This document shows positions 4,115 through 62,565 of a stretch of 64,000 nucleotides of DNA, piece by piece; the stretch's first letter is position 1; the number at the start of each line of letters is the position of its first letter. Below the pieces are notes generated by a model. It was not told the origin of the DNA. It saw nothing but the letters and a program-made list of their open reading frames with translations, and did no database searches. The DNA comes from Peptostreptococcaceae bacterium (lineage in GTDB: Bacteria; Bacillota; Clostridia; Peptostreptococcales; Anaerovoracaceae). The stretch lies in assembly GCA_016650175.1 (NCBI GenBank), contig JAENWG010000002.1:8214-72213 (forward strand), given 5' to 3'. The translations under genes were made by a program, and so were the position numbers.

Positions 4115-4126
4115 ATAAAGCTTAAA

Positions 4127-4157
4127 CAAAAGAGAGCAATTAATTTTGCTCTCTTTT
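4127..4157 (+). terminator. Rho-independent terminator after nfnB
   Basis: AAAAGAGAGCAA-TTAATT-TTGCTCTCTTTT hairpin followed by T-rich tail. Confidence 0.6.
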
Positions 4158-4196
4158 ATGTTGTCTACAACTGAAATAATGAAAATTCAAAAAAAC

Positions 4197-4227
4197 AAAA
4201 AGAGAGCAATTACTTTGCTCTCTTTTT
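4197..4227 (-). terminator. Rho-independent terminator of the sel operon (near-copy of the 4127-4157 hairpin)
   Basis: AGAGAGCAA / TTGCTCTCT stem begins 2 nt after the selenoprotein stop codon. On the minus strand it is followed by TTTTTGTTTTTTTG. Confidence 0.6.
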
Positions 4228-4228
4228 G

Positions 4229-4555: not shown

Positions 4556-4622
4556 TAAATTACCTCCATACTCTTATTTGTCTCTATTATAACAATAACT
4601 CTTATATATGTATGTGACTATA

Positions 4623-6476
4623 TCACACAAAATATCTTAAATTTTCCACTTTGTAAGTAATGTTTTTAGCATCGAATGCATCAAGTATTAATAAAGCGTT
4701 TTTTCTTGAAGTGTTTAATTCATCTCTAAAGTCTCCAAGTGATACTCCACCTTTTTGAGATAGTTTTCTAAATAAATCAATTGCTTTATCGAAGTTTGAT
4801 TTACTTATGTATAAATCGTTTCCAAGCCTTATTAAAGCACCTTTTTTTTCAAGGTAGATTAAATAATCTTTGTTATCTTTAGTTGTATTGACAGAAAACT
4901 TTTGATCATCAATTGCTTTTAAAACATCATCTAATTTACTTTGATCTACTTTTACGCTGTGGCCTGGCAAATTCAGATAAACATCATTTGTTACAATTAC
5001 CTTTTTGCTTATTAATATTTTAATTATTTCATCAACGACTTTACTGTTTTCTATATTAAGCTTGTTGGATATTTTACTGTTAAGTTCTTTAATTTTAATA
5101 CCAAGGCTTAAGGTATTGTTGTTTTGATTTTCTTTAAATATTTCAACAATTTTAGTGCTTAAATTATTAAGTCTGTCTTCTGATACCACGCATTCACCAA
5201 CAAATATTACTTTCTTATCATCTATTAGCTCTTTTAGAAGTTCATCAGTGCCATCACCAATTATTCTTTTTAAACTTGTTAATTCAGGAAATCTGCTTTG
5301 TCCATATTCAATTAACGAAAGCAGGGCTTCGGTTTCACTGTTAGAATCAAGCAATTTAAAAGCTTCTATTGATTCTTCTTTTTGTCTTTTATGCTTTTTA
5401 GGCTTAGGATTTAATACTAATCCGCCGCCAAAAGTTTCAAGAGGTGAGAAGAACCTAATAATAAACGGATCGTTTCTTTTAAGTGCTATTTCTTCTTCAA
5501 GTCTTAGTTGAGCATAAGCTTTCTGACCAGCTCTAATTTCGTCTGTACCAATTAAAACGACTTTAGCTATCATTTCCTTAGACCCTACATAAAAATGTAT
5601 TCTATCATTGTTTTTGAGCCTTCTCTTGGTGTTTTCGAACAGGGTTATGGAAACATCTACTATCATAGAAGTCTCCATTGCATTTGGCATCGCAAGTACA
5701 TCGCCTCTTGATATATCTTCTTTTTTTAAGTTTGTAAGATTAATAGCAGTTCTTTGACCTGCCGATGCAGAATTTACATCTTTGTCATGCACCTGAAGAT
5801 TCCTTACTTTAGCTTTAAGCATAGAAGGGTAGAGCACGATTTCATCTCCTGTGCTTAAGCTACCTTCAATCATAGTACCTGTAACTACAGTACCAAAACC
5901 CTTAATTGAAAAGATTCTATCTATAGGCATTCTGAACATTTTTTTATCAGTATTTTTATTACCTATTTCTTTAGCTTTACTTAAAATTTCTTGTTTAAGA
6001 TAATCTATATTTTCCATTGTTTTAGATGAAACTTTAATTATTTCAGTTTCTTCTAAAAAGGTGCCTTTAATTAAAGTATTTATATCATCTTCTACTAAGC
6101 TAAGCATTTCTTCATCAACAGAATCAATTTTGGTAATAACTGGTATACCTTTAGTAATACCTAGACTTTTAACTATATCAAAATGTTCTACAGTTTGAGG
6201 CATTACACCTTCATCTGCTGCTACTACAAGAAGCACTATATCAATGCCTTGCGCGCCTGCTAACATATTTTTAATGAATTTTTCATGACCCGGTACATCA
6301 ATTATCCCTATATCAAGGTTTTCATCATTCGGCATATATGTAAAACCAAGCTCAATTGTAATTCCTCTTCTTTTTTCTTCAATTAGTCTGTCAGTATCCG
6401 TACCTGTTAATGCTTTAATAAGCCAAGTTTTACCGTGATCTACATGGCCGGCTGTTCCAACTACAACATTTTTCAT
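4623..6476 (-). CDS. selB: Selenocysteine-specific translation elongation factor SelB
   Basis: N-terminal GTPase (GHVDHGKT, DVPGHEKF, TKID), EF-Tu-like domains II/III, and a long winged-helix C-terminal extension. Adjacent to selA. Confidence 0.9.
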   Translation of the reverse strand: MKNVVVGTAGHVDHGKTWLIKALTGTDTDRLIEEKRRGITIELGFTYMPNDENLDIGIIDVPGHEKFIKNMLAGAQGIDIVLLVVAADEGVMPQTVEHFDIVKSLGITKGIPVITKIDSVDEEMLSLVEDDINTLIKGTFLEETEIIKVSSKTMENIDYLKQEILSKAKEIGNKNTDKKMFRMPIDRIFSIKGFGTVVTGTMIEGSLSTGDEIVLYPSMLKAKVRNLQVHDKDVNSASAGQRTAINLTNLKKEDISRGDVLAMPNAMETSMIVDVSITLFENTKRRLKNNDRIHFYVGSKEMIAKVVLIGTDEIRAGQKAYAQLRLEEEIALKRNDPFIIRFFSPLETFGGGLVLNPKPKKHKRQKEESIEAFKLLDSNSETEALLSLIEYGQSRFPELTSLKRIIGDGTDELLKELIDDKKVIFVGECVVSEDRLNNLSTKIVEIFKENQNNNTLSLGIKIKELNSKISNKLNIENSKVVDEIIKILISKKVIVTNDVYLNLPGHSVKVDQSKLDDVLKAIDDQKFSVNTTKDNKDYLIYLEKKGALIRLGNDLYISKSNFDKAIDLFRKLSQKGGVSLGDFRDELNTSRKNALLILDAFDAKNITYKVENLRYFV

Positions 6477-42121: not shown

Positions 42122-43411
42122 TTATAATTCTATATATCCTCTTTTTATTAATTCATCTAAAGCTTTAATTACTCCAAATTTAGAATGCTCGTAAGTAAGT
42201 CCACCTTGAAAATATGCAATGTAGGGCTCTCTTAACGGTGCATCAGCACTTAATTCTATTGATGACCCCTGAACAAATGCTCCTGCAGCCATTACTACTT
42301 GATCTTCATATCCTGGCATATCCCAAGGAATGGGTGCTACGTGAGCATCTATTGGAGATGCTGACTGTATGCCTTGACAAAATGAAACCAATTTGTCTGG
42401 ATTGTTAAATTTAATAGCCTGTATAATGTCACTTCTTTTAGAATTCATGTCCGGACATATTTCATATCCGAGTTCATCAAATACTGAACCACATAATATT
42501 GCTCCTTTTAAAGCTCCGTTAACCACCTTAGGTGCTAAGAATATACCTTGAAGAATAGCTCTTGTCTGTCCAAAAGTAAGTCCACATTCTGCTCCAATTC
42601 CAGGGCAAGTAAGTCTATACGATATATTATTTATTAAATCTTTTCTGCCTACTACATATCCACCTGATAAGGCCAATCCGCCACCTGGATTTTTAATAAG
42701 CGATCCTGCCATTACATCAACACCAACATCCGTTGGTTCTATATCGGATACAAACTCTCCGTAACAATTATCAACCATTACTATGATATCTTTATTTATC
42801 CTGTGTATCGTTTCTGTGATGTTTTTAATTTCTTCAATTGTAAGAGCATTTCTCCAAGCATAACCAGTTGATCTTTGCATAGCTACAACTTTTGTTTGTT
42901 CTGTTATAGTCTTTTTAATAATTTCTTCATCCATCTGACCATTACTTAAAGCTACTTCCTTATATTTAATACCATAATCCTTAAGAGATCCAAAGCTACT
43001 TCCAGTATTACCAATTACTTCTTGTAAAGTATCATATGGCGCTCCTGAGCAATATATAAGTTCTTCTCCCGGTTTTAATATACCAAATAATGTACATGCT
43101 AGAGCATGCGTGCCATTAACTATATTGGGTCTAACTAAAGCAGCTTCTGTATTAAATATATCTGCATATACTTTTTCAGTAGCTTCTCTTCCAGGGTCAT
43201 CATATCCGTAACCAGTATTCCATGCAAAATGCATGTCGCTTATTCGGTTTTTTTGAAAAGCTTTTAATACCTTTAATTGATTCTTTTCCATTATCTCATC
43301 ATACGAATTAAATCTATCAATTAATTTATCTTGATTACTGTTTACAATATCTAATACTTTTTCTTCTATGTTAAATTCTTCTATAATATATTCTTTAGTA
43401 CTTTTATTCAT
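42122..43411 (-). CDS. ynbB: Methionine gamma-lyase family PLP protein (YnbB / 'aluminium resistance' family)
   Basis: 429 aa. GYGYDD.GR, GSLIKNPGGG (PLP Lys) pattern. Confidence 0.75.
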   Translation of the reverse strand: MNKSTKEYIIEEFNIEEKVLDIVNSNQDKLIDRFNSYDEIMEKNQLKVLKAFQKNRISDMHFAWNTGYGYDDPGREATEKVYADIFNTEAALVRPNIVNGTHALACTLFGILKPGEELIYCSGAPYDTLQEVIGNTGSSFGSLKDYGIKYKEVALSNGQMDEEIIKKTITEQTKVVAMQRSTGYAWRNALTIEEIKNITETIHRINKDIIVMVDNCYGEFVSDIEPTDVGVDVMAGSLIKNPGGGLALSGGYVVGRKDLINNISYRLTCPGIGAECGLTFGQTRAILQGIFLAPKVVNGALKGAILCGSVFDELGYEICPDMNSKRSDIIQAIKFNNPDKLVSFCQGIQSASPIDAHVAPIPWDMPGYEDQVVMAAGAFVQGSSIELSADAPLREPYIAYFQGGLTYEHSKFGVIKALDELIKRGYIEL

Positions 43412-44541
43412 TATTCTTTAGATTCCTTTCTTTCAAGTTCCCATTCCATATCTTTTACTAAGTCTCTTTTTACATTTTGCTTATGTTTAGCATAAAGCTG
43501 AGTTGTAGTTACTTGTTCGTGATCAAGTAACGCCTGTACATCATATATTGAATTTCCTCTACCTATTAAACTAGTCGCTGCTGTTGCTCTTAGCTTATGA
43601 GGGCTGTAACCAGCTCTTCTGCTTGTTTTTAAAGCAATAGATGTATATTTCTTTACAAGCTCTCTAATAGACCTTTCTGTAAGCCTTTTACCTTGAAGGG
43701 ATAAAAATAATGCATCCTCATTTCCTTCAACGATTTTTTCTTCATTTGGTCTTTCAACTGTTACATAATCGTCTATTACTAAACTCACTGATTTATTAAG
43801 AGGCATCATAGATTCTTTGCCTCTTTTTCTATATATTTTAAATTCTCCTCTATTAAAATTAAATGAAGATATATTTAGCTGTTGTAGTTCTGATAGTCTT
43901 AATCCATAAGTCAGAAAAAGCACTAATATTGCTTTGTCACGCAGTTTAGTTTTCTCCCAATAGCTTTTTTCGTGCTCAGTCAAACCTTCTCCGTTAGTAA
44001 CAGAATCAAGCATTATCATAACTTCATCATCTTGTAATGCTTTTATTTCATTTTCTCCTGTTTTAGGAACTCTTATTGGGTCAAACCCATCAGTTATATT
44101 TTCTTTAAGTAGACCATCTCTATAGAGTTGTTTGAATAATACGGAAACAGATGATCGTTTTCTTGCTAAGGTTCTATTACCATTTTGATAAACCACTATA
44201 GTTTCTTTTGATTCTACAGTATATTTTCGGCAGTAATCTAAAAAGATATTAATATCCATAGCTGTAATTTCATTTAATTCTTCTACTTTAACGTCAGTTG
44301 GTATGCTTGCTTTAGTAATACCAGATTCAAAAACAAGGTAATTAAAGAAGAACAATATGTCATGTAAATATGCAGATCTTGTCATAGGAAGTACATTTGA
44401 TTTTAAGTATATAAAATAACTTCTTAGATATTTAGGTAGCTGTTTTTGTATGGCTTCGCATTCAAAAAACACGTTATTCTCTTTTTCAATTATATTATTT
44501 GGTTTATCGGTTTTATTATGTATTCTCACATTTTTACTCAT
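43411..44541 (-). CDS. Tyrosine recombinase (Xer/phage-integrase fold), embedded in a housekeeping operon
   Basis: Catalytic R (YGLRLSEL), HKLRAT and LLDHEQVTTTQLY give the R-H-R-H-Y set. Start overlaps the miaA stop (ATGA) and its stop overlaps the ynbB start. Confidence 0.8.
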   Translation of the reverse strand: MSKNVRIHNKTDKPNNIIEKENNVFFECEAIQKQLPKYLRSYFIYLKSNVLPMTRSAYLHDILFFFNYLVFESGITKASIPTDVKVEELNEITAMDINIFLDYCRKYTVESKETIVVYQNGNRTLARKRSSVSVLFKQLYRDGLLKENITDGFDPIRVPKTGENEIKALQDDEVMIMLDSVTNGEGLTEHEKSYWEKTKLRDKAILVLFLTYGLRLSELQQLNISSFNFNRGEFKIYRKRGKESMMPLNKSVSLVIDDYVTVERPNEEKIVEGNEDALFLSLQGKRLTERSIRELVKKYTSIALKTSRRAGYSPHKLRATAATSLIGRGNSIYDVQALLDHEQVTTTQLYAKHKQNVKRDLVKDMEWELERKESKE

Positions 44542-49905: not shown

Positions 49906-50889
49906 ATGAATAAATTTAAGAAGATATTTAATCCTGAATACTTTCAGGGTAACATAAAAAGCAACAACTATTTTGAAGGTTGGTACTATAAATTAACCAA
50001 TTTGGAAGAGTCGTTTTCCTATGCGATCATACCTGGTGTTTCGTTATCTGACAGCAGTCATGCCTTTATACAGGTAATTGAAGGCAGCACTGGTAAAACA
50101 TATAACTTTACCTTTGATCTTAAAGATTTTTCATACGGTACAAATGAGTTTTTTGTAAAAATTGGTGATAATGTTTTTGCAAAAAAAAGTATAAAGCTAA
50201 ATTTAAAAAACGAAGAATTCGAATTAAGCGGAATAATCGACTTTGATGAAGTAGTTGACTTTCCAAAAAATATACTAAGCCCAGGTATTATGGGTATTTT
50301 TTCATATATTCCTTATATGCAGTGCAACCACGGAGTTGTTAATATTACGCATAAAACAAGTGGCCAACTGTTACTTAACAATATTAAACTTCCTATGGAT
50401 AACGGTTACGGTTATATTGAAAAAGACTGGGGTAATTCTTTCCCTTCAAGCTGGCTTTGGCTACAAGGTAATAACTTTGAAAATACCGAAGCATCATTTA
50501 TGCTATCTGTTGCTAATGTTCCTTTTATGGGCTCTGAATTTGTAGGTTTTTTAGGCTTTCTGTATTTTGACGGAGAAGTTCATAAATTTGCGACCTACAA
50601 TAGAAGCAAAATTAAAAACATTGAATTAAACGGTAACAATCTATCAGTTACAATAAAAAAGAACCAATACACTCTAAAGATAAGTGCTACGAATGACGGA
50701 GTCGGTACGCTAAAAGCTCCTGTAAACGGTTCTATGACTTCAACTGTTAATGAAAGTATTAATGCTAATATAACTATTACACTAGAAAAGGACAATGAAG
50801 TTATTTTTCAGGACACTTCATACATGTGCGGAATGGAAGTCTCAGAACTATCAGACGAGCTAATTGGTAAAATTAATAAAGGGAGTTGA
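49906..50889 (+). CDS. Tocopherol cyclase-like family protein
   Basis: YFEGWYYKL near the N-terminus and IEKDWGNSFPSSWLWLQGNNF resemble the FFEGWYFK / EKNWG..FP..W.W.Q.N.F motifs of VTE1-type cyclases, recalled from memory. Confidence 0.6.
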   Translation: MNKFKKIFNPEYFQGNIKSNNYFEGWYYKLTNLEESFSYAIIPGVSLSDSSHAFIQVIEGSTGKTYNFTFDLKDFSYGTNEFFVKIGDNVFAKKSIKLNLKNEEFELSGIIDFDEVVDFPKNILSPGIMGIFSYIPYMQCNHGVVNITHKTSGQLLLNNIKLPMDNGYGYIEKDWGNSFPSSWLWLQGNNFENTEASFMLSVANVPFMGSEFVGFLGFLYFDGEVHKFATYNRSKIKNIELNGNNLSVTIKKNQYTLKISATNDGVGTLKAPVNGSMTSTVNESINANITITLEKDNEVIFQDTSYMCGMEVSELSDELIGKINKGS

Positions 50890-51907: not shown

Positions 51908-52797
51908 AAATAGTTGCTAAATCAATTTTAATAAAAGAACAAATTTTAGATAAAGTTAATAAAGGCTGTGATGCACTTGAAATACAGCTAGCGGAAGAAC
52001 TTTATACGTCCCCTCCTCCTCATAATATTAATGATTTATTTGATAATGATCTATTAAATATTACTGATATTTATTCTGTGCATCTTCCTTTAGGAAAACA
52101 TAGATTTGATACTAATTTAGATGATGTTTTTTCAAGTGATAGGATTTTTGCTTTTTATGACGGATGCAGTATTGCACAAAAGTCAGCAAAAATATGGAAT
52201 CATCCAGTTAGGCTTATTCTTCATTTTGAAATGGATTTTGATAAGATGATTAGAGCTGACTATATTACTGATCACATCATAACAGTATTTCGTAATGCTC
52301 TAAATGACTATCCTGATGTAATATTCGCCATAGAAAATGTAATACCCCTCCTTCCTAAACAAAACGGATGGTATTTAAGTTCTAACGGATTTGATGACTG
52401 TGTAAGACTAGTCGAATACTTAAGAACGCAATTAAATACTAAAAGGTTCTCCGTAGTTCTAGATACCTGTCATGCAGGTATGACTATTTACTATCTAGAT
52501 GTCCTATATAGCCTTTTAAACCAAGCTCACGACAAATACGCTATGGAAGATTTTTTCAAAGCTTACAGTGAATACTGTGATACTATTCATCTTTGTACAT
52601 TTAAAGAAGATGGCTTTTATAAAAACCACGGAATTGGATTTCAAGATAATCATAAGCTACTTGAAGAATATGTTGATTTATGGAACAAATATACAAAAAA
52701 CGCAGCACTTGTATTAGAGGTGCGTGAAGATGATTATACAAACAGTATTAACTTTTATGAAAACTCACTTCTAATTAAAGAATATTTAGAAGTATAA
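51904..52797 (+). CDS. Xylose-isomerase-like TIM-barrel (sugar phosphate isomerase/epimerase, AP_endonuc_2-like) protein
   Basis: Spaced H/E/D pattern: SVHLP, ILHFE, AIENV, VLDTCHAG, IHLC, LVLEV. Motif-level evidence only. Confidence 0.45.
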   Translation: MKIVAKSILIKEQILDKVNKGCDALEIQLAEELYTSPPPHNINDLFDNDLLNITDIYSVHLPLGKHRFDTNLDDVFSSDRIFAFYDGCSIAQKSAKIWNHPVRLILHFEMDFDKMIRADYITDHIITVFRNALNDYPDVIFAIENVIPLLPKQNGWYLSSNGFDDCVRLVEYLRTQLNTKRFSVVLDTCHAGMTIYYLDVLYSLLNQAHDKYAMEDFFKAYSEYCDTIHLCTFKEDGFYKNHGIGFQDNHKLLEEYVDLWNKYTKNAALVLEVREDDYTNSINFYENSLLIKEYLEV

Positions 52798-52890
52798 GAA
52801 AATATATATTAGCATAACTATATATAATAATTCACTGTCACCTTAATAGGCGACTCTTTTACTTTTATGGTTATAACTTTTTTGTTAAAG

Positions 52891-52916
52891 GATGGTTCTT
52901 AACAATCATCTTTTTT
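52891..52916 (+). terminator. Rho-independent terminator after the three-gene operon
   Basis: GATGGTT-CTTAAC-AATCATC stem (one G-T pair) followed by TTTTTT. Confidence 0.5.
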
Positions 52917-53087
52917 CAGTCGCCCAACATTGCATAATATCAAGGGTAAAAGTCCCAAGTACAAAAACAATAGAAATATAACGCACATATGATTTTAAAT
53001 AATGTTAAAATGTGTATGACAATGTTCAAATTCATCTTCTTAAATCCTTACGGATTTTCTTAGTAATTGCGTATATTTAAATAGTAG

Positions 53088-53792
53088 TTATTCACAATAC
53101 TTGCTATATTCTTTTTCACATTCATTAAAAAAAGTTCCCCAATCAGAATTAACTTTCTTTTCATTTGTAGTTAAATAATAGAGAAGTTTATATATACCTT
53201 TTAACAGATTTGAGTTCTTATGAAAAACACGAATAGCATAAATCAATTCATATACCTTAATAGCTCCAAGAGAATGTAAAAATGGATTTAATTCAGTTCT
53301 ATTAATTAAAGAAATTGCATTTGAGTCATTTGTAGAAAAATAAATTAATTTCTTTGCAACTGCATAAGAAATAGATTTAACTTCACCACGATCATTGCGA
53401 TTATCCATATGTGGATTAAAATTTGTAAACTGTGATATTTTTTCTTCTATTGTATTTCTAATAGATTTTTCATTTGGCGTTAAATCATCATCTTTTAGCA
53501 ATATAATTTCACCAGAAGTAATTTTAATATCAATATATTTTTTTATAATCTCAGTTTCAGAAATCTCACGATAAACAGCTTCGTGGATTGCTACATTTGA
53601 GAATACACTCAATAAAGGTTCTATAAAAGCATCTTTATATTTTTCAAACGGTATATTTAAACTAGCAGAATTTTTCAAATCAAGGTCTGACCGATCTGGT
53701 GGAATAATCAAATTTGCATCAATAATTACAGTTTGACTTTTATCTTTTAATAATTCAATAAATTCTTGATTTGGGATGATTACTTTAGCCAT
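53088..53792 (-). CDS. PIN-like (DUF4411-like) putative nuclease; candidate toxin/effector
   Basis: 234 aa. Acidic residues at PIN-like spacing: D25 (VIIDANLI), E71 (IHEAVYRE), D134/E137 (NDRGEVKSISYAVA), D156 (YFSTNDSNA). Start overlaps the upstream stop (TAATG). Confidence 0.45.
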   Translation of the reverse strand: MAKVIIPNQEFIELLKDKSQTVIIDANLIIPPDRSDLDLKNSASLNIPFEKYKDAFIEPLLSVFSNVAIHEAVYREISETEIIKKYIDIKITSGEIILLKDDDLTPNEKSIRNTIEEKISQFTNFNPHMDNRNDRGEVKSISYAVAKKLIYFSTNDSNAISLINRTELNPFLHSLGAIKVYELIYAIRVFHKNSNLLKGIYKLLYYLTTNEKKVNSDWGTFFNECEKEYSKYCE

Positions 53793-54679
53793 TAGTCATC
53801 AGCTCCAAACAATTCCGCTATTTCATCAATATCATCTTCATTCACATTAATTTTGTAACCAAAATCTTCTATTTTTTTGTCAAATATCTTCAAATCCCTA
53901 ATAGTTGAATCTAGTGTTATCGTCTCTTCATCATAGTTTTGTAATATTGTATTCAAAGCCTCCATATCGACACCATGCTTATTTGTTTCTCTATTTAATC
54001 TTACGAAGACAAATTCATTTATTGTTTTCCCAATTTTGTAATATACGCTTTCATTATCTCTTTCATTAATAGATAATAATTCATATTTTAAGCTCTGTTC
54101 AATTGCCCCAATCTCGTTAAGACGTTTTACTATCATTTTATACGGAACCTGATAATCAATTTGAATTTGAACAATCAATCTTAATAGAGCATTGTTACTC
54201 CATTTGTCCAAATCAACACTTCCACGGTTCTGTTTTTTAACCAATGTAATTAAGGTTTCTGTCGGAAGTAAAAATTCAGCAGCAAACCTATTTGCTTTTG
54301 AATTTATAAGTTCATCATCAGGTTCTGAAATTCTTTGAATGTGTAAATAATTTTTATTATCATCAATATGATGATAATATTCATGACATGCGTTAAAAAT
54401 TTGTAAATCTAAAGGTACTAATGTATTAATCGCAATGTAATACGATTGTATACCAGTTACAGAGCTACTCTTCTCTAAATAAAAGGCTACAAGTCCCTTT
54501 GTATTTTCCGTTTTTATAGCAAAATTTAATAACTGAATATTATTATCTCTAAAAACTGAAAATATTTTTTCACCAATTGGTCCCATACCTAAGTCTAGTA
54601 ATCTTCGCTTTGATTTTGTTAATTCAACAAGATTCAACTCTTCATTTGGGTTTAACACTACTTTATTAATACCTTCCAT
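53792..54679 (-). CDS. ImmA/IrrE family (COG2856) Zn metallopeptidase with extra C-terminal domain
   Basis: HEYYH (H99-E100-x-x-H103) and ANRFAAEFLLP downstream motif. About 150 further residues of unknown domain. Confidence 0.75.
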   Translation of the reverse strand: MEGINKVVLNPNEELNLVELTKSKRRLLDLGMGPIGEKIFSVFRDNNIQLLNFAIKTENTKGLVAFYLEKSSSVTGIQSYYIAINTLVPLDLQIFNACHEYYHHIDDNKNYLHIQRISEPDDELINSKANRFAAEFLLPTETLITLVKKQNRGSVDLDKWSNNALLRLIVQIQIDYQVPYKMIVKRLNEIGAIEQSLKYELLSINERDNESVYYKIGKTINEFVFVRLNRETNKHGVDMEALNTILQNYDEETITLDSTIRDLKIFDKKIEDFGYKINVNEDDIDEIAELFGADD

Positions 54680-55019
54680 AATTGTTTTCCCTTAAGTTTT
54701 TATGTTTATCTAAACATAAAATCATTTCAATCAACTCGTTGAAAACTTTCTTTTCTTCAGCTGATTTTGCCTCTCCTTTTAAAGCTATTATAACATCTTG
54801 CTTACTTTCAACCTCAAGTATATCAGCGAAGTCATTACCTGTTACTTCTAGTATTTTTTCTATTTGATCCAATTTAGGTAGATGTTGCCCTCTTTCTATT
54901 TTTCCATATATCTGATCATTAAGCGATAGCAAATCTGCCATTTCTACTTGATTTAATTGATTTACTTTTTTATATTTCAAACAAATATTTGCAAGTTTAT
55001 TAATATTGATTTTTGACAT
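54666..55019 (-). CDS. XRE-family HTH transcriptional regulator
   Basis: LNQVEMADLLSLNDQIYGKIERGQHLPKLDQIEKI is a Cro/C1-type HTH. Its 3' end overlaps the ImmA start by 14 nt. Confidence 0.75.
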   Translation of the reverse strand: MSKININKLANICLKYKKVNQLNQVEMADLLSLNDQIYGKIERGQHLPKLDQIEKILEVTGNDFADILEVESKQDVIIALKGEAKSAEEKKVFNELIEMILCLDKHKNLRENNYGRY

Positions 55020-55064
55020 AACAATTCTCCTTTCAAAAAAACAATCATTTCTTCCTGTACACGT

Positions 55065-55093
55065 ATTATATACTTTAATTATATATAATGCAA
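55065..55093 (-). promoter_or_regulatory. SigA-type promoter of the XRE-ImmA-PIN operon
   Basis: Minus strand TTGCAT (55093-55088) - 17 nt - TATAAT (55070-55065), about 45 nt upstream of the XRE start. RBS AAAGGAGAA. Confidence 0.45.
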
Positions 55094-55537
55094 ACTATTC
55101 ATTATATTTCATTACTATTTATTGTTTTAGCATATTTGTAATATACTATTTCCTATCATTAATTTTTTTTACTAACAATATTTCACTTTGTAATGATATA
55201 GATTCTCTTATATAAAAGCTTATAATCAATCAGGGAGTCATTTTTAATATACTACAAACATCTGATAAATTATGTTTCATAAAGAGTATTTATTCCTTAA
55301 AAATAAGTTGCAATGCTTCTTCAATAAAAAAAAACATTGAATGATTTTATATTTTGCTCACTCAATAGCCCGTTGTTCAAATTCTCCATATACAACTTCT
55401 CTAAAATCAGTTCATGATTCAAAGAATATCCTTCATTTCAAACTAGTAAGTAATTCTTAAAAGTTACTTATTCCATATTTTATAGGGCGGCATGTCCTAG
55501 ATATATTAACTTACAATATTCCACGATAGGCCCTAAA

Positions 55538-55891
55538 TCATTTACTTAATAACGCAAGGATACTAATAAAAACTGCTACGGCAGAAATAAACATAGGAAT
55601 CATCCATTTCCAAAAATCATAATATTTACGTTCAATCATTTCGTTTGCTTTGGTTGTGGCAAATGAAACAAACCTTGAGTCCATTGAAAACTGTGGTAGT
55701 TCAAAATTTATCCATTCTCCTTCAACATTCTTGGTTATTATATATTGCTCTTTATTTAAATTTTCAAGCAAAAATATATTTGCATAATCCTTACCAAATT
55801 TTTTCTGCAATTTCCCCCAAGTTATACCGTGCATACTGTGATTATGTACATATTTCAGAATTTTCATTGTTTTTTTATCAAACGCTACCAT
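55538..55891 (-). CDS. Hypothetical protein, soluble N-terminal (possibly winged-helix) domain plus C-terminal TM anchor
   Basis: The ATG at 55891 is 9 nt after GGAGGTG. C-terminal WKWMIPMFISAVAVFISILALL is a TM helix. No family recognised. Confidence 0.4.
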   Translation of the reverse strand: MVAFDKKTMKILKYVHNHSMHGITWGKLQKKFGKDYANIFLLENLNKEQYIITKNVEGEWINFELPQFSMDSRFVSFATTKANEMIERKYYDFWKWMIPMFISAVAVFISILALLSK

Positions 55892-56036
55892 GCACAAACA
55901 CCTCCTTATTCACATTCTTATTATACGCCTCTAAAATTCGTTCTATATATACTAATCTACTACGCTAAAACACATCATATTATGCAACGTTTTTCTTCTT
56001 TCATCGGTTACCTTTGCACTTGACACAAAATTAATT

Positions 56037-56492
56037 TTAATAAGTACTTAATTTCAGGTTCTTTTTAACGATATACATTTGCTCCTCCAAAAAATCATAA
56101 TAATCAACATCATCTGGTACATTCAGATCATTATGTACTATCTCCGCAATATTTTTCAGTGAGCAAACTGCATCTATTAATTTTTTTCTTCTCGGTATAC
56201 CAATACAAACCCTCGGTTTTATTTCAATCAATCCTTTAAGACTCGCTGCCAAATCTTTTAATTCTATAGTTACATTATTATAATCAAAAAGATATTTATT
56301 GCTACTGCTTTGCATAATATCGACTTTATCAAATAAATTATAATCATATAATTCAAACATTTTAGCTATTTCCTTTTTAATTTGTTTATATTCTTTTAAT
56401 GGCTCTATCCATATTTCTTTAGCACTTTCGGTAACCGAAAATATAACTATACTACTTATTACGGTAATTAATATAGGTAAAAAATTATCCAT
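56037..56492 (-). CDS. Hypothetical protein with N-terminal TM anchor
   Basis: 151 aa. FLPILITVISSIVIFSV is a TM helix. RBS GAGG upstream. No family recognised. Confidence 0.4.
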   Translation of the reverse strand: MDNFLPILITVISSIVIFSVTESAKEIWIEPLKEYKQIKKEIAKMFELYDYNLFDKVDIMQSSSNKYLFDYNNVTIELKDLAASLKGLIEIKPRVCIGIPRRKKLIDAVCSLKNIAEIVHNDLNVPDDVDYYDFLEEQMYIVKKNLKLSTY

Positions 56493-56646
56493 TTTTTACC
56501 TCTTCTCCTAAGTGATTTCTCAATTTATGTTTTCTGACTATTCAATTATATAATCAATTGCTTCCCTTAAATTACTACTCCTATATTATGTCTATAAATA
56601 TTGAACTTTTTTACCTTAGTGTTTTGTTTCTCCTTTATAAATCCTA

Positions 56647-57348
56647 TTACATCCAAAAATCATTATAGCATTCTAAGGTACCATCTTCATCAAAATAGTA
56701 ATATACAGCAGATATAGTCCCTAGGTTAGCATCTTCTGGATGATAGAATTCTTTAATAGTCTCATTCTTAGTAATAATCTCTTCATATGCATCGTTCATA
56801 GTATATCCATGCATTTCTAATGTTTTAGTATTAGATATTTGTTTATTAGTATTATTATCATAGTAGTAACATATGTATGAAGTTAAATTTCCACTTGCTT
56901 CAAAAGAAATTTCAGTTTTAATTGCAAGTACTGAGATATTTAAATTATCTTTAGTAAGTTCATAGTTAATTGTAACTGAAGTCATTTTACTATATGGATT
57001 TTCTTCGTTATATTCACTTAGAGTCATTTCCAAGTCTTCCTTACTGTCATAACCATCAAGACCAGCGTATGGAATATCAGTATTAATTAAATCTCCGTTT
57101 AATACATTTTCCGTAACATTAGGTATTACAATATTTACAGCCACATCATTTATTGTTTCGTTAATTGTAAATCCATCTTCAACTTCTAAATACTCTGCTT
57201 TATCTATTGTCACTTCTTCAGGTTTCGCTTCTTCAGTATTAAGTACTTCATTCGTAGAATCTGTATTATCATTAGAACAAGCTACTAGGGACACTAATAC
57301 AAAAGCTATTAATACTATTAACATTTTCTTTTTCATTATTTTCTCCAT
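56647..57348 (-). CDS. Lipoprotein, unknown function
   Basis: Signal peptide with lipobox (LVSLVAC-S). Acidic and Asn/Thr-rich mature part. Confidence 0.65.
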   Translation of the reverse strand: MEKIMKKKMLIVLIAFVLVSLVACSNDNTDSTNEVLNTEEAKPEEVTIDKAEYLEVEDGFTINETINDVAVNIVIPNVTENVLNGDLINTDIPYAGLDGYDSKEDLEMTLSEYNEENPYSKMTSVTINYELTKDNLNISVLAIKTEISFEASGNLTSYICYYYDNNTNKQISNTKTLEMHGYTMNDAYEEIITKNETIKEFYHPEDANLGTISAVYYYFDEDGTLECYNDFWM

Positions 57349-57374
57349 TCGTCTATTATTCTAAGTAATATTTA

Positions 57375-57407
57375 AGGCAGACACAAGCTTTAAAATTGTG
57401 TCTGCCT
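57375..57407 (-). terminator. Hairpin between the sortase and lipoprotein genes
   Basis: AGGCAGACACAA-N9-TTGTGTCTGCCT (12-bp stem). The T tail on the minus strand is weak. Confidence 0.45.
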
Positions 57408-57412
57408 CTTAT

Positions 57413-58159
57413 CTACTGTTCGTCTACCAGCACTGCTGTAATTAAGAACCTATAATCATGGTCATGATCTATTGTACAGGTTGATAAAGTAATTATTTTA
57501 TCATCAACTGTAACTTCTTTATCCGTATAATTATCTCTTGCCATATTCGTATTATTCAGTGAATCAAGAAAAGCTTGATATCCATCTTTATCATCAAGGT
57601 CATATAACGCCGTAATCAATTTGTTATTGTAAGTAACCGCTGCAAATATTTCATACGTATATATATGCTCAGGCGTATATATTATGATTTCCTTGTTTTC
57701 TTTAAAAAATTCTTCATCATAAAACTTCTGTAAGTCACCAAACATAGTACCTTGACCGTTATCACTTGCCATATGAACATTATGACCATATATTACCGTA
57801 TTGTTATCCGTTAAATCCGAACTGTTAGTCAGATTAATATATATACTTCCCGGTATCCAGTTTTCTACTTTGTTTAAATCATGATTCACATAGTAGTTAT
57901 CCTCATCAGGACTTTGTAGAAGAGGATAATCGACTGTAGTATTTGGTATAGTAATCCAAGCTATTACGTCTTCATTTACATCCCATGCAGCTTCAAAATC
58001 AATCGGTATATCAACTTTTTCAACTACTTTTTCTTTTAGTTCATCTACTGCCTTTTCTGATCTATTACTCGCTAACTTAGAGTTAATTATAAAGGCTGCG
58101 CAGCATATTACTATAACCCCTAATACTATTAGTATTATTGTTCTTCTCTTCTTTGTCAT
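57413..58159 (-). CDS. srtB: Class B sortase
   Basis: N-terminal TM. WI.IP.T.VDYP..Q, IYGHN, TLSTC catalytic motif. 248 aa. Confidence 0.75.
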   Translation of the reverse strand: MTKKRRTIILIVLGVIVICCAAFIINSKLASNRSEKAVDELKEKVVEKVDIPIDFEAAWDVNEDVIAWITIPNTTVDYPLLQSPDEDNYYVNHDLNKVENWIPGSIYINLTNSSDLTDNNTVIYGHNVHMASDNGQGTMFGDLQKFYDEEFFKENKEIIIYTPEHIYTYEIFAAVTYNNKLITALYDLDDKDGYQAFLDSLNNTNMARDNYTDKEVTVDDKIITLSTCTIDHDHDYRFLITAVLVDEQ

Positions 58160-58302
58160 CTACTTCTCCTGTCGAATCAATATACTGAGATTATATCAAA
58201 TATATTCAACATTTACAATAAGACCATAAGTATAACCTTTATTTATAGTTATACTTTCTTAATCTTTTCGTAAGTTATACCTGCTCAAAACATTTCTTCA
58301 AG

Positions 58303-58653
58303 TTATTTAAGAAATTTGCTATACAGACAATATATTATTACAATCCATAAAATTACTATAGGAATTCCATAATACCACTTACCCTTTAAGTCTATATCTT
58401 CCTCTGTTAAAACAATACTTTTAGGTATAAGTTTTAATGATATGAAAATAAAAAGAGGAATAAGCAATAAGTCATCAACATATCCTAACACTGGTATGAA
58501 ATCAGGTATCAAGTCAATTGGTGATAATGCATACGCAATTGTAAACCCAATCATAGCTTTAGCATACCAGGGCATATCAGGATGACTAATTGCACCAGCT
58601 AACATCTTCACCTGTTTATTTATCTTTCTTATTTTTTCTTTTATATTATCCAT
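58303..58653 (-). CDS. DUF1232 (YkvA-like) membrane protein
   Basis: YALSPIDLIPDFIPVLGYVDDL signature. Confidence 0.65.
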   Translation of the reverse strand: MDNIKEKIRKINKQVKMLAGAISHPDMPWYAKAMIGFTIAYALSPIDLIPDFIPVLGYVDDLLLIPLFIFISLKLIPKSIVLTEEDIDLKGKWYYGIPIVILWIVIIYCLYSKFLK

Positions 58654-58856
58654 TAATTAAAGCGCCCAAATATTCTAACTGTTTGAGTAGTGTCAATATT
58701 AGTAATTATACTTTTTTCCATGTTTATTTCTATTGGGTCATTATCATTCCATTCATAACAAGTAAGTATGTCTTTCTTATTAATTCCATAATAATCATTT
58801 GTAATCGTTACCAATTCGCCTGTTTCCTCAATCATAAAATCAAAATATTTAATCAT
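58653..58856 (-). CDS. Hypothetical 67-aa protein, translationally coupled to the DUF1232 gene
   Basis: TAATG overlap with the downstream gene. 12 nt after the NERD gene stop. No family recognised. Confidence 0.35.
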   Translation of the reverse strand: MIKYFDFMIEETGELVTITNDYYGINKKDILTCYEWNDNDPIEINMEKSIITNIDTTQTVRIFGRFN

Positions 58857-58868
58857 AATTCCTCTCCA

Positions 58869-59561
58869 TTACTTTTCAATCTTAGTCTTTATACCTTGTA
58901 TATGTTTCAGCTTAATATCATTAGATACATTTGTATATCTATCTAGTTGTTTATAGATTTTTTTTACTTCTTCAATAGTTATCAAATCTGGCATTTTATT
59001 AAGTTTTCTATAAATTCCTTTTATCATGCCACCTCTATAACCTACGAATGTATCTTTAGACTTATTACTAATTTTTTTTAGTGTACATCTTTGGCTAAAT
59101 ACTATATATGATTTAAACAATTCGTCATCTTCTATATTTAAAGCTCTTTTAATATTAGTAATGTGACCATTATTTTGCCATATAGGATTGAAGAATTTTT
59201 CCTTCTTTCCATTTTTAAATGTTTGTGTCCAAGTCTTATGTCTATCGTCTCCATATATCCAACCACTATAGTTTTTTGATTCGAATACAAAGATGCCTTT
59301 CTTACTAATCATTACTAAATCTACTTCAGTCATTCCTCCATCTTTAGTAGGTAAATATATATTTGTTAACAGTTTTTTGTAAATATTAAATTTCTCTAAT
59401 AACCTAAAAGTATCATATTCACCATAATTTCCTTTATTAAATCTTACTTGTCCGTAAGCATTACCGGATGCTTCCGAATATTTAGACTTTTTATATTCCT
59501 TGTAGCCTAAGAATTCTTTTAATGCAATCATTATCAATAATACAATAATTGATTTATACAT
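58869..59561 (-). CDS. NERD (nuclease-related domain) protein with N-terminal TM
   Basis: G.YGE......L......L.N.......G..TEVDLVMISKKGIFVFESKNYSGWIYG pattern is typical of NERD. Confidence 0.7.
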   Translation of the reverse strand: MYKSIIVLLIMIALKEFLGYKEYKKSKYSEASGNAYGQVRFNKGNYGEYDTFRLLEKFNIYKKLLTNIYLPTKDGGMTEVDLVMISKKGIFVFESKNYSGWIYGDDRHKTWTQTFKNGKKEKFFNPIWQNNGHITNIKRALNIEDDELFKSYIVFSQRCTLKKISNKSKDTFVGYRGGMIKGIYRKLNKMPDLITIEEVKKIYKQLDRYTNVSNDIKLKHIQGIKTKIEK

Positions 59562-59591
59562 CTGCTCTCCCTTACAATTTCATTGGAAATA

Positions 59592-60506
59592 TTATATAAA
59601 TTCTTTCAACTGCTTATTGTTTTCTTCTTGATCTATAACAAGATAATATACACCATCTATCATTGAATCATGACAAAATCCATCAACTGGGAATCTTTTT
59701 TGTTCTAATGTTTTCATATTAGATGTAGCTACTGAGGTCATCAATGATACAATTTCACCTTTTTTATAGCTAGTTTCAACATAAGGCAACACTTTATTTA
59801 AAACACCTGTCATTTCACCGATGTCGCTAACATCTAGTGTATTAAATAACACTTCAAGAACTTCTCTTTGTCTATCTGTTCTTTCAAAATCACCATTACC
59901 TTGATATCTAATCCTGCAATAGCCTAATGCTTGAGTACCATCTAAATGATGTTCTCCAGCTGTATTTATGCCATAATTTTTCATAGCACTAATCTCATAG
60001 TCCTTTATAGTTATATCTATACCACCTACTTCATCAATTATATCTGTTAATCCTTCAAAATCAACATAAACATAATCTCGTATATCAAGTTCAAAATTTT
60101 GATTTATAGTTTTTATTGATAACAATGGACCTCCATAAGCATAGGCATGATTTATTTTTGTCATACCATAACCTTCAACAGCTACATATGTATCTCTCAT
60201 AATAGATGAAAGTTTAATTTTGTTTTCTTCATAATCAAGTGATAATATAATTATAGTATCTGATCTTCCTATGTCATTGTTTCTACTATCTACACCAAAC
60301 AGAGCTATATTTACAGTTTCTCCATTCTGTCCCATAAATTCCTCATCAATACCTAGTTCTTCATTGGTATTAGGTAAGTCATTAATAGTAACCTTATTTA
60401 ACACTGTGTTTATATATATTGCACCTAATCCAATTATCAGTAAAAGAACAGCAACTATAATTATTGTTACTTTCTTCCACCTCTTTAACTTTTTCCATTT
60501 TGCCAT
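59592..60506 (-). CDS. LCP (LytR-CpsA-Psr) family glycopolymer transferase
   Basis: N-terminal TM. NIALFGVDSR....RSDTIIILS, MRDTYV, INHAYAYGG. Confidence 0.85.
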   Translation of the reverse strand: MAKWKKLKRWKKVTIIIVAVLLLIIGLGAIYINTVLNKVTINDLPNTNEELGIDEEFMGQNGETVNIALFGVDSRNNDIGRSDTIIILSLDYEENKIKLSSIMRDTYVAVEGYGMTKINHAYAYGGPLLSIKTINQNFELDIRDYVYVDFEGLTDIIDEVGGIDITIKDYEISAMKNYGINTAGEHHLDGTQALGYCRIRYQGNGDFERTDRQREVLEVLFNTLDVSDIGEMTGVLNKVLPYVETSYKKGEIVSLMTSVATSNMKTLEQKRFPVDGFCHDSMIDGVYYLVIDQEENNKQLKEFI

Positions 60507-60573
60507 TATTTTTATTGCTCCCTTTTACGCATAGTAATCAATCCGATTACATAAATTTTATTATATTTGATAC

Positions 60574-60770
60574 TTAATCCCTACTAAATAAATCCCTTGT
60601 ATATACCTTATCTTCTACATCTTTTAACTCTTCTGAAAGTCTATTAGCGACTATTATATCACTTATTTTCTTAAATTCATCAAAATCTTTTATTACCTTT
60701 GATTTAAAGAATTCTTCTTCATTAATAGAAGGTTCAAATACTACTACTTCAATAATTATTTTTATATGAA
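60574..60770 (-). pseudogene. 3'-terminal remnant (~60 codons) of a UDP-glucose 6-dehydrogenase (ugd) gene
   Basis: Minus-strand translation: ...IIEVVVFEPSINEEEFFKSKVIKDFDEFKKISDIIVANRLSEELKDVEDKVYTRDLFSRD*. This matches the characteristic Ugd C-terminus (IIANR...L.DV..KVYTRDLF..D). There is no start codon or N-terminal domain, and an in-frame stop lies just upstream. Confidence 0.55.
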
Positions 60771-60901
60771 CACATTAACAGTACTAGCAAATATTCAAAC
60801 TTAAGAATATTAGACATTGTCTTAATCAATTTATTATTAAACGCTTTATTAATATATTCCATATTTTATTCGATTTCACTAACAATACGTCTATATTTTA
60901 A

Positions 60902-61363
60902 TTACATCTTTTGATTTTCAATATTTATATATATATCTTTCATTTTTATAAGATAATCTAATGGAATCCATATATATGCTGTCTGTTGAGTGTGCTTATC
61001 ATCCTTATAGTCTTTTATTTCCAAATAATTATTTCTTATGCTCGCATTTCCATGTGCAATTCCATTTCTAATATGTCTTAATAAATCTCTTGCTATGCTA
61101 TTTCCACTATTCATTTCAATATATAAATTTAAATCCTTAGCAGTAGTAGTATTAATTTCGTTAGCTTTTTTAATAATAAAATTGTCCTTTTTTATATAAT
61201 CCAATTTTTTAATTTTGTTAGTATATCTAGCAACTTTATTAACACCTTTTTTCTTCCATTTATAATTTTCAAATTTATTATCATTAAAAATCCAATCTAT
61301 TGTTTCAGCCCATGAATTTCTATTACTTTTATCTATCTTTAAGTTTAAGTCTATAAAAAACAT
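60902..61363 (-). CDS. Orphan protein with HEPN-like Rx4H motif
   Basis: 153 aa. ARDLLRHIRNGIAHGN contains R99-N-G-I-A-H104. RBS GAGGAGAA. No partner gene adjacent. Confidence 0.4.
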   Translation of the reverse strand: MFFIDLNLKIDKSNRNSWAETIDWIFNDNKFENYKWKKKGVNKVARYTNKIKKLDYIKKDNFIIKKANEINTTTAKDLNLYIEMNSGNSIARDLLRHIRNGIAHGNASIRNNYLEIKDYKDDKHTQQTAYIWIPLDYLIKMKDIYINIENQKM

Positions 61364-61434
61364 TTTATAATATTCTCCTCACTATCAACCCTTTACTTTT
61401 GTAATTATATTAAAGTAATATAACCTTTCTGCTA

Positions 61435-62565
61435 TCATATTATTTGGATTCTAAAAAATTCTTTTATTTTTTCACATACATATAGCACTTCATTTTCAGT
61501 TATTTCAGGATATATTGGTAATGCTAACACTTCATTACAAAGGTTTTCAGATACAGGAAAATCACCTGGTTTGTAGCCCAAGTAATCAAAACATTTTTGT
61601 AAGTGTAACGGCCTAGGATAATAAATAGTAGTTTGTATTCCATTTTTCTTTAAAAAGGCTTGTAGTTCATCTCTTTTTTTCGCTTTAATATTAAATACAT
61701 AATACACTGGTAGTTGATTACCTTTAATTGATGGTAATGTTATTTGGATGATACCTATTAATTGTTCATAATACCATTCGGCTACGATTTTACGTTTTTC
61801 TATTGCTTTGTCAATGTTTTTCAATTTAATATTTAATATTGCAGCTTGTATGGTGTCCATTCTTGCATTATACCCAATATAGTCATGATGATACTTCTTA
61901 GTTGCACCATGCACTCTATATGATTTTGCTTTATCATATAGCTCTTCATTATTTGTTACTATCATTCCTGCATCACCATAAGCACCTAATGTTTTAGTAG
62001 GAAAAAAAGAAAATATTCCCATATCGCCTATAGTACCCGAATGTTTTAAATCACTATTTGTTCCTTGCCACTTCATTCCAAAAGCTTCTGCTGCATCTTC
62101 AAGGACTTTTAAATTATATTTTCCAGCTAAAGTATTTACTTTATCCATATCAGTCATTTGTGAAAACAAATGAACAGGTAATATACCTGCTGTGTTTTTA
62201 TTTATTTTTTCTTCTACTAAATTCATATCCATATTAAAAGTATCTTTATCTACATCTACAAATACGGGTTTAGCACCTGAATGATATAAGCAAGAAGCTG
62301 AAGAGAAAAAAGTAAACGGACTAGTAATTACTTCTTTATTGTTGTTGAATTCTAATACATCCGTAGCCAAAGCTAATGCATCTGAACCTGAAGATACTGC
62401 TATAGCATATTTTGCACCCGTATAATCAGCTATACTTTTTTCGAATTCTTTGACTTGATTACCCATAATGAAATTTCCAGCTTTTAGAACTTCGGACACT
62501 GCATTATCTAATTTATCTTTATTATTATTATACTCTCGAGTTGGATCAAAAAACTTAACTTCCAT
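61435..62565 (-). CDS. DegT/DnrJ/EryC1/StrS family sugar aminotransferase (WbpE-like)
   Basis: 376 aa. SSGSDAL and SFFPTKTLGAYGDAG (PLP Lys) motifs. Confidence 0.85.
   Translation of the reverse strand: MEVKFFDPTREYNNNKDKLDNAVSEVLKAGNFIMGNQVKEFEKSIADYTGAKYAIAVSSGSDALALATDVLEFNNNKEVITSPFTFFSSASCLYHSGAKPVFVDVDKDTFNMDMNLVEEKINKNTAGILPVHLFSQMTDMDKVNTLAGKYNLKVLEDAAEAFGMKWQGTNSDLKHSGTIGDMGIFSFFPTKTLGAYGDAGMIVTNNEELYDKAKSYRVHGATKKYHHDYIGYNARMDTIQAAILNIKLKNIDKAIEKRKIVAEWYYEQLIGIIQITLPSIKGNQLPVYYVFNIKAKKRDELQAFLKKNGIQTTIYYPRPLHLQKCFDYLGYKPGDFPVSENLCNEVLALPIYPEITENEVLYVCEKIKEFFRIQII

Follow-up and report, generated by a model that had tools for sequence, protein, structure and literature searches.

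What is encoded by three overlapping minus-strand genes on a contig from a Peptostreptococcaceae bacterium: a toxin-antitoxin or defense cassette, the regulatory end of a mobile element, or a stress regulon? We addressed this question in a 64,000-nucleotide stretch of contig JAENWG010000002.1 (GenBank assembly GCA_016650175.1, positions 8,214 to 72,213), referred to below as the window. The initial annotation of this DNA had proposed that an XRE-type helix-turn-helix (HTH) protein, an ImmA/IrrE-type metalloprotease, and a PIN-like protein form a candidate tripartite toxin-antitoxin (TA) or antiphage module. Our analysis favors the reading, with a probability of roughly 0.55, that the cassette is a self-contained, mobile, protease-gated nuclease switch, i.e., a three-component TA or abortive-infection-type defense candidate. 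The features on which this reading is built are as follows.

54666..55019, minus strand: gene 1, XRE-family HTH protein of 117 amino acids (HTH_3, RstR-family, and PDC-M69A matches)
53792..54679, minus strand: gene 2, M78 (ImmA/IrrE/CapP-like) zinc metallopeptidase of 295 amino acids (Peptidase_M78 and PDC-M69B matches, fold match)
53088..53792, minus strand: gene 3, predicted PIN-like nuclease of 234 amino acids, the presumed effector or toxin (model fold, PDC-M69C match, conserved acidic residues)
53013..55216, minus strand: extent of the transferable cassette, deduced from blastn homology to close relatives with unrelated flanks

Reading of the sequence bore out the compact layout given in the initial annotation. 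Genes 1 and 2 overlap by 14 nucleotides (54666-54679), and genes 2 and 3 share one base in a TAATG stop/start at position 53792.

Gene 3 matched no Pfam, NCBIfam, or PHROG family, with no Pfam match even at an E value of ≤1, and a profile search against PDB sequences was empty. Assignment to DUF4411 (PF14367) or to the Pfam PIN families PF01850 (PIN) and PF13638 (PIN_4) was therefore rejected, and the support for a PIN relationship consists of the fold and of sub-threshold matches of distant family members (PF01850 at 0.029 and 0.11 and PIN_4 at 0.23). The AlphaFold model of gene 3 (pLDDT, 90.2; pTM, 0.87) was compared to the PDB with Foldseek, and the top 15 matches were all PIN domains (probability, 0.96 to 1.0), including a Pyrococcus PIN protein (1y82), VapC (5ecw, 3h87, and 6a7v), FitB, Rrp44, and the HARP RNase P, with target-normalized TM-scores of up to 0.64 and modest E values (2.5e-3 to 0.08). 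The acidic residues singled out in the initial annotation also proved to be conserved. In an alignment of 77 sequences, the invariant residues include D25, P32, R34, H70, E76, N131, D134, G136, E137, and K139, and at least 90% conservation was found for E71 and D156. In the model, D25 follows the strand formed by residues 22-24, E71 follows strand 67-70 and begins a helix that contains E76, helix 132-146 has D134 and E137 at its beginning, and D156 follows strand 150-153. These secondary-structure positions would place the acidic residues at strand ends and helix starts, as in PIN enzymes. Insertions are present as well in the modeled protein, and its C terminus is extended by about 50 helical residues (180-232). 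The modeled fold thus predicts that gene 3 encodes a PIN-like nuclease, and its family escapes detection by the Pfam, NCBIfam, and PHROG models. Among the 132 homologs retrieved, hardly any had a functional name and none had a Pfam domain. One of them (P0102) is labeled "rRNA-processing protein FCF1" by JGI, and a protein identical to gene 3 is present in a Peptostreptococcaceae metagenome-assembled genome (MAG).

The protease assignment of gene 2 was upheld by a match to Peptidase_M78 (PF06114) over residues 63-188 (1.9e-13; 50.7 bits versus a gathering cutoff of 22). The motifs HEYYH (residues 99-103) and ANRFAAEFLLP (residues 129-139) are present, and H99, E100, H103, and E135 are invariant among 43 homologs, indicating that the HEXXH motif and the downstream Glu zinc ligand are intact. 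The closest structures to the AlphaFold model of gene 2 (pLDDT, 83.7) were CapP (7t5t; 1.2e-4) and IrrE (3dti; 5.9e-4), both with a Foldseek probability of 1.0, although only about 188 columns were aligned, placing the end of the IrrE/CapP-like core at about residue 190. The remainder is a C-terminal domain of about 100 residues (about 195-295), and not of about 150 residues as first estimated, which is all helical in the model, unmatched in the PDB, and acidic (pI 4.3; charge, -13). This domain is found mainly in the ImmA proteins of the triads (37 full-length homologs), weaker matches covering chiefly the protease part. Its tail (residues ~270-295; window positions 53792-53870) is modeled with low confidence, is acidic, and ends in DDIDEIAELFGADD. 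The tail pattern D-x-D-E-x-x-E-L-F is conserved across the gene 2 family, and distant ImmA-like proteins close with a similar tail, SDEELDxIMEE.

CapP and IrrE are known to cleave XRE-type repressors in their C-terminal dimerization domain upon sensing of a signal (PMC13228613). In CapP, a C-terminal GAF domain and the peptidase domain form a groove for single-stranded DNA (ssDNA), and many, although not all, CapP proteins contain a cysteine switch (PMC13228613). Gene 2 shares with these enzymes the association of an M78 metallopeptidase with an XRE repressor but not the sensory apparatus: the acidic helical domain (residues 195-295) stands in place of the GAF domain, to which the ~188-column alignment with 7t5t and 3dti does not extend, and no Cys occurs between H103 and E135 (residues 104-134, IDDNKNYLHIQRISEPDDELINSKANRFAA). 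Because both elements are lacking, the ssDNA groove and cysteine switch mechanism should not be assumed for gene 2. It is conceivable, though unlikely, that the acidic helical domain and its conserved D-D-I-D-E-I-x-E-L-F tail form a new kind of sensor or an autoinhibitory, nucleic-acid-mimicking module. If so, the cassette would respond not to ssDNA but to another signal, such as a phage DNA-binding protein, and would be a stand-alone protease-gated PIN immune system based on a sensing principle that is undescribed for M78 peptidases.

Gene 1 encodes the Cro/C1-type HTH protein that had been recognized initially (HTH_3, 2.8e-5, above the Pfam cutoff; RstR-family repressor, 1.8e-7). An alignment of 65 orthologs identified two conserved parts, the HTH (residues 1-65) and a C-terminal region (residues 77-110). 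From the sequence, this two-region layout resembles that of the protease-cleavable repressors CapH and DdrO and also that of type II antitoxins. Gene 1 is presumed to be an autorepressor and the substrate of the protease, and it is possibly an antitoxin as well.

The neighborhood survey suggested in the initial annotation was performed on a scan of one genome per species, which provided 80 gene 3 loci (numbered L001 etc.) from Clostridia, Bacilli, Negativicutes, Spirochaetes, and one "Woesearchaeota" MAG. Of the 73 loci whose upstream sequence was long enough, 72 have an ImmA homolog directly upstream of gene 3, and an XRE homolog was located directly upstream of the ImmA gene at 66 of 69 intact loci, the three others consisting of two contig ends and one frameshifted copy. 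The overlap between the XRE and ImmA genes is kept in 65 of these 66 loci, and the ImmA and gene 3 coding sequences overlap or are separated by at most 10 nucleotides in 96% of 69 loci. The genes next to the triad are nearly all different: 127 first neighbors fell into 137 Pfam families, the commonest being serine recombinases (4) and DDE transposases (3; 3 to 5 transposases in all), and the census revealed neither a conserved fourth gene nor a conserved surrounding element. A few defense genes were found among these neighbors (AbiE, MADS, AbiL, reverse transcriptase, and a type I specificity subunit).

Comparison of close relatives by blastn delineated the transferable unit. Locus L100 (87.6% identity) matches the window from position 55216 to position 53177, where the L100 contig ends, and L004 from Fusibacter (74.9%) matches from 55099 to 53013. 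The DNA common to close relatives is limited to about 2.1 to 2.2 kb, comprising the promoter and the three genes only, and the flanking genes differ. The same arrangement of the triad is present on two Paenibacillus megaplasmids. As judged from these alignments, the triad is a conserved, autonomous, and horizontally mobile unit.

The triad extends to a distant branch of the family. ImmA relatives with only 24 to 31% identity are found in the same HTH-ImmA-X order, the third gene encoding 186 to 190 residues (L092 to L099; HTH protein of 114 to 115 residues and ImmA of 271 to 286 residues). This short-form third gene is homologous to gene 3 (hhalign probability, 95 to 97%; ~21% identity). Since distant short-form triads share both the gene order and a homologous third gene, the triad architecture is older than the divergence of the long form from the short one.

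Individual loci display departures from this pattern. In L007 (3756-4151), gene 3 lacks residues ~8-102, including D25 and E71, and the XRE and ImmA genes are intact, a deletion that looks like toxin decay. L015 (1063-2978), from the MAG labeled Candidatus Woesearchaeota UBA119, has a triad with tblastn values near those of Firmicute loci such as L011, followed by large opposite-strand open reading frames, and its presence under an archaeal label is likely due to misbinning or to a recent transfer. Three independent assemblies with a gene 3 identical to that of the window (L001 to L003; Logan contigs, SRR13106731-33) break 45 to 48 nucleotides upstream of the gene 3 start, in the 3′ end of the ImmA gene (window position ~53840). 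An ImmA allele with 88% identity exists elsewhere (P0122/L100), and the breaks could stem from differences between strains or from a shuffling of modules ahead of gene 3.

The initial annotation knew of no experimentally characterized system with this architecture. We likewise found no experimental report, but novelty had been overstated, since cassettes of this type have already been predicted (PMC2701414, PMC5499597, and PMC10440598) and are listed as a PADLOC candidate. All three component models of PADLOC entry PDC-M69 matched the adjacent genes in A-B-C order on the same strand. PDC-M69B covered gene 2, including the C-terminal domain (2e-29; model positions 18-270 of 272), PDC-M69C matched gene 3 (3.8e-14; model positions 24-179 of 188), and the PDC-M69A match to gene 1 was weak (2.5e-4). 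Membership was judged from these matches and the gene order, independently of PADLOC's own score thresholds and system rules. The PDC collection comprises 145 untested candidates identified by "guilt-by-embedding" in BREX, DISARM, and type I restriction-modification (R-M) loci (Payne et al., 10.1101/2024.01.29.577857); PDC-M69 is linked to that study by the "PDC" prefix alone, and the name was present in no searchable paper text. Locus L010, where a type I R-M operon (hsdM-hsdS-hsdR) directly follows the triad, provides the type of context in which PDCs were defined. The window cassette and PDC-M69 have the same three genes in the same order and differ in the third gene, which is of the long form in the window (234 residues versus a 188-position model). 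PDC-M69C aligned to residues 56-214 of gene 3 only, leaving the N-terminal part with D25 outside the best stretch. On the basis of these profile matches, the window cassette appears to be a long-form relative of PDC-M69.

The predictions in the literature follow the same logic. Makarova et al. proposed in 2009 that Xre repressors associated with PIN or RelE toxins are cut by a protease of the COG2856 family (PMC2701414). Matelska et al. predicted in 2017 associations of HTH, DUF955, and PIN-like domains, the latter from families COG2405, DUF4411, PIN_14, PIN_20, and PIN_26 (PMC5499597). In the 2023 study of Ernits et al., PIN-like domains were noted among the partners of the ImmA antitoxin node (PMC10440598). 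The window cassette contains the domain triad of these predicted three-component TA systems, in which proteolysis of the Xre repressor or antitoxin would activate the PIN nuclease. In contrast to the cassette, where the genes are separate, the HTH is often fused to the protease in the Makarova and Matelska systems, and gene 3 did not match the DUF4411 or Pfam PIN models. Similarities also exist with VapBC modules, namely, the PIN fold, the conserved acidic residues, and an overlapping operon with an upstream gene for a DNA-binding protein. However, gene 3 is about 100 residues longer than VapC and only 9 to 13% identical to VapC structures, a protease gene is interposed between the HTH and PIN genes, and the HTH protein is of the XRE type, whereas VapBC antitoxins are of the RHH, AbrB, or Phd type. 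Beyond what we found catalogued, the present analysis adds the fold-level assignment of gene 3 to PIN domains, the connection of the long form to the short form, and the non-GAF acidic domain of the protease.

Expression of the three genes is likely to be controlled from a single upstream region, in which the following features were identified.

55065..55093, minus strand: promoter (-35 TTGCAT, 55093-55088; 17-nucleotide spacer; -10 TATAAT, 55070-55065), from sequence reading and a consensus scan
within the spacer and -10 box of this promoter, minus strand: candidate operator TATATA-N7-TATATAAT, conserved in 5 orthologous upstream regions, its function being putative
55130..55146, minus strand: candidate second operator, the imperfect palindrome GTATATTACAAATATGC, about 70 nucleotides upstream of the first candidate, also with a putative function
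55026..55030, minus strand: ribosome-binding site GGAGA, 6 nucleotides ahead of the ATG of gene 1 (55019), from sequence reading

The TTGCAT-17-TATAAT promoter noted initially is thereby located upstream of gene 1. The motif by itself proves nothing, since promoter-like hexamers are not enriched in the AT-rich DNA of this region (17 found versus 20.9 expected from shuffled sequence); significance from the consensus scan was rejected on this ground, and we relied instead on conservation in orthologs. Alignment of 5 orthologous upstream regions with diverged flanks revealed an invariant -10 box, and the TTG of the -35 box is retained in 4 of the 5. The sequence AAAGGAG is kept upstream of gene 1 in orthologous regions, and orthologs have a palindrome, TATATAyT..AAAATATA, at the position equivalent to GTATATTACAAATATGC. 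No intrinsic terminator was found 3′ of gene 3.

The GTATATTACAAATATGC stretch is part of a 36-nucleotide direct repeat (D1) whose copies are 83% identical (30/36), with a chance expectation of ~1e-4 such pairs per 2.6 kb by a rough hand binomial estimate. One copy (55117-55152) lies upstream of the promoter and spans the candidate upstream operator, and the other (54017-54052) lies within the ImmA gene, the encoded residues being ..ESVYYKIGKTIN... When L100, L004, L005, L006, and L007 were examined for a repeat of this kind (at least 77% identity over 30 nucleotides), none was found, and a role of the repeat as a conserved auxiliary operator was rejected as a feature of the family. A short core, TATATTAYAA, is common to L100 at both sites, with the same C/T difference at both.

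By analogy with ImmA/ImmR, IrrE/DdrO, and CapP/CapH, repression, triggering, XRE cleavage, nuclease activity, toxicity, and defense could be connected in the cassette as follows. The XRE protein would bind to TATATA-type operators overlapping its own promoter and keep the three genes, which are coupled in translation, weakly expressed; its conserved C-terminal region may also restrain the nuclease. The M78 metallopeptidase would be latent until a stress or infection signal is sensed via its non-GAF acidic C-terminal domain. The activated protease would then cut the XRE protein in the C-terminal region of the latter, thereby derepressing the operon and/or freeing the PIN-like metal-dependent nuclease. 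The freed nuclease would degrade RNA or, less likely, DNA, leading to arrest of the cell. In this mechanism, the effector is cotranscribed downstream in the same operon, unlike CapH/CapP, which are found beside a separate multigene immune operon. Several lines of evidence concur with a protease-gated nuclease switch: the recurrence of the triad in a distant branch, the fold of gene 3, the catalytic motif of the protease, the PDC-M69 matches, and the toxin-decay pattern of L007.

Other observations weigh against this interpretation. Our literature search turned up no experimental study of a three-gene cassette with a PIN protein. Since neither the GAF domain nor the cysteine switch of CapP is found in the protease, an ssDNA trigger is not simply transferable. 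The enrichment of defense genes among first neighbors is modest, as judged by a plain neighbor count, and no recognized defense system is located beside the cassette in the window. Autoregulation of the operon as a unit implies that derepression lifts the repressor and the protease along with the nuclease. Finally, gene 3 exists in unguarded form: L062 (1848-2561) is a catalytically intact orphan gene 3, devoid of XRE and ImmA genes and located beside an IS4-type transposase, and L006 (8813-10729) combines a frameshifted XRE gene and a truncated ImmA gene with an intact gene 3. Unless these two loci are assembly artifacts, expression alone does not make the nuclease lethal, and the enzyme may require some further activation or be only mildly toxic.

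The main alternative, which we consider possible but doubtful, is modeled on RosmerTA, a validated TA and antiphage system consisting of an ImmA-type zinc peptidase and a variable toxin (PMC10440598; 10.1101/2022.05.11.491447). The ImmA-like protein would itself be the antitoxin, its C-terminal domain binding and neutralizing the PIN toxin and perhaps being lost or inactivated on infection, and the XRE protein would only autoregulate the operon and not be the key proteolytic target. Experiments have confirmed the ImmA-domain protein RmrA as an antitoxin, phage defense has been reported for RosmerTA systems whose antitoxins are of the ImmA type, and pairings of ImmA nodes with PIN-like domains are documented (PMC10440598; 10.1101/2022.05.11.491447). 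Several RmrA models match gene 2 (best, 1.2e-9), the alignment covering residues 12-195 only. The near restriction of the 100-residue C-terminal domain to triad ImmA proteins and the translational coupling of the ImmA gene to gene 3 in 96% of loci, as expected for a stoichiometric complex, are also in line with this alternative. However, RosmerTA comprises two genes in variable order, with RmrA fusing the HTH to the protease, whereas the three genes of the cassette are separate, overlap, and follow a constant order, unlike the two-gene HTH-M78 fusion layout; the characterized RmrT toxins are unrelated to PIN, some being, e.g., membrane depolarizing. A domain with a charge of -13 would be a poor plug for the active site of a PIN enzyme, which is also acidic. 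Conservation of the catalytic HEXXH motif and downstream Glu implies that proteolysis matters, and the C-terminal region of the XRE protein is conserved, as in protease substrates and antitoxins.

According to a second alternative, the XRE-ImmA pair would be the immunity switch of a mobile element, of the ImmR/ImmA type, gene 3 would be a passenger (e.g., for superinfection exclusion), and the window cassette would be the remnant of a decayed prophage or integrative and conjugative element (ICE). ImmR and ImmA govern the induction of ICEBs1 and prophages (cited in PMC13228613), and the cassette resembles this pair in that a sigma-A-type promoter precedes an XRE repressor gene, which in turn overlaps a downstream gene for an M78 antirepressor protease. 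A minority of the relatives do occupy the regulatory end or the vicinity of an element. L088 is in a prophage with TerL and portal genes, L085 to L087 are beside two or three large serine recombinases, and the triad of L100 adjoins a Toprim/DUF3991 gene. In L092 to L095 (~3664-5423), the short-form triad is flanked on one side by a phage holin/endolysin cassette and on the other by two serine recombinases, all on the same strand; the XRE-ImmA pair of this lineage could also serve the element as its immunity switch. The low GC content of the region from 52.5 to 61.5 kb of the window (0.23 to 0.29, versus 0.30 to 0.33 in neighboring core genes) also fits an acquired element.

For most relatives, however, there is no surrounding element, and the invariant partner of the XRE-ImmA pair is the PIN-like third gene rather than an integrase. 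Serine recombinases and transposases account for only 4 and 3 to 5 of the 127 first neighbors, respectively, which are spread over 137 Pfam families, and the possibility raised initially that homologous triads are always the end of an ICE or prophage was thus not borne out. Homology to relatives ends at the borders of the cassette. A phage origin as a general explanation was rejected, since gene 3 has no PHROG family, no tblastn match in 50,697 phage genomes, and no structural match in BFVD; among the 2.9 million contigs of IMG/VR, there were just 5 real gene 3 matches, 1 in a prophage and 3 beside tandem large serine recombinases. In the window, the genes next to the cassette include no integrase, excisionase, or phage gene. 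The initial statement that none is nearby holds for the immediate surroundings but not for a tyrosine recombinase gene (43411-44541; Phage_integrase, 1.9e-27) located 8.5 kb away. This gene overlaps the end of miaA by 4 nucleotides within a co-oriented mutS-mutL-miaA string, and it was rejected as the cassette integrase because mutS, mutL, and miaA separate it from the cassette and share its orientation. No mobile element is obvious around it. Overall, the distribution data disfavor a decayed ICE or prophage end, which we consider improbable, as they do a housekeeping stress regulon.

The latter, an IrrE/DdrO-type chromosomal regulator in which stress would activate the protease, the XRE protein would be cleaved, and the PIN-like enzyme would perform beneficial RNA or DNA processing instead of acting as a toxin or immune effector, deserves little credence: IrrE is among the closest protease folds, the intact orphan and unguarded copies of gene 3 (L062 and L006) speak against obligate toxicity, and homolog P0102 bears an FCF1 name, but the family is patchy, sporadic, mobile across Clostridia, Bacilli, Negativicutes, and Spirochaetes, and small (242 matches among 1.84 billion representatives by profile search, many of them fragments), as is typical of accessory selfish or defense modules, all three proteins match a PADLOC candidate, and the L007 deletion resembles toxin decay.

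In the window, the cassette is surrounded by sortase, DUF1232, NERD, and LytR genes, small unknown open reading frames, and a tocopherol-cyclase-like gene. The region from 52500 to 61500, characterized by the low GC content mentioned above, may be variable or accessory; no complete known defense system was recognized in it. At 4 to 6 kb from the cassette, on its promoter side, are genes for a NERD-domain protein (58869-59561; 1.4e-28, with weak PADLOC matches to the PglW and MkoA N termini) and for a protein with a weak resemblance to the HEPN protein pEK499_p136 (60902-61363; 1.3e-4, below the Pfam cutoff). The tocopherol-cyclase-family protein (49906-50889; PF14249, 3.9e-24) is followed, in an apparent operon, by a polytopic membrane protein and an unannotated 297-residue protein; a gene of this type is unusual for an anaerobic Firmicute.

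Pairs formed by an XRE protein and an M78 peptidase are emerging as general signal-to-transcription switches, both in immunity (CapH/CapP and RosmerTA) and in mobile-element induction (ImmR/ImmA). The direct coupling of such a pair to one PIN nuclease was predicted as early as 2009. At 2.1 to 2.2 kb, the triad described here is compact and self-contained and has a clear catalytic readout, making it a convenient minimal model for asking what activates such proteases when they lack a GAF-based ssDNA sensor, whether the antitoxin is the repressor, the protease, or both, and whether a protease-gated PIN nuclease protects against phage. For annotation, the analysis gives a specific candidate role to three genes with hypothetical or generic names and places the 234-residue protein, as a prediction from its modeled fold, in the PIN superfamily.

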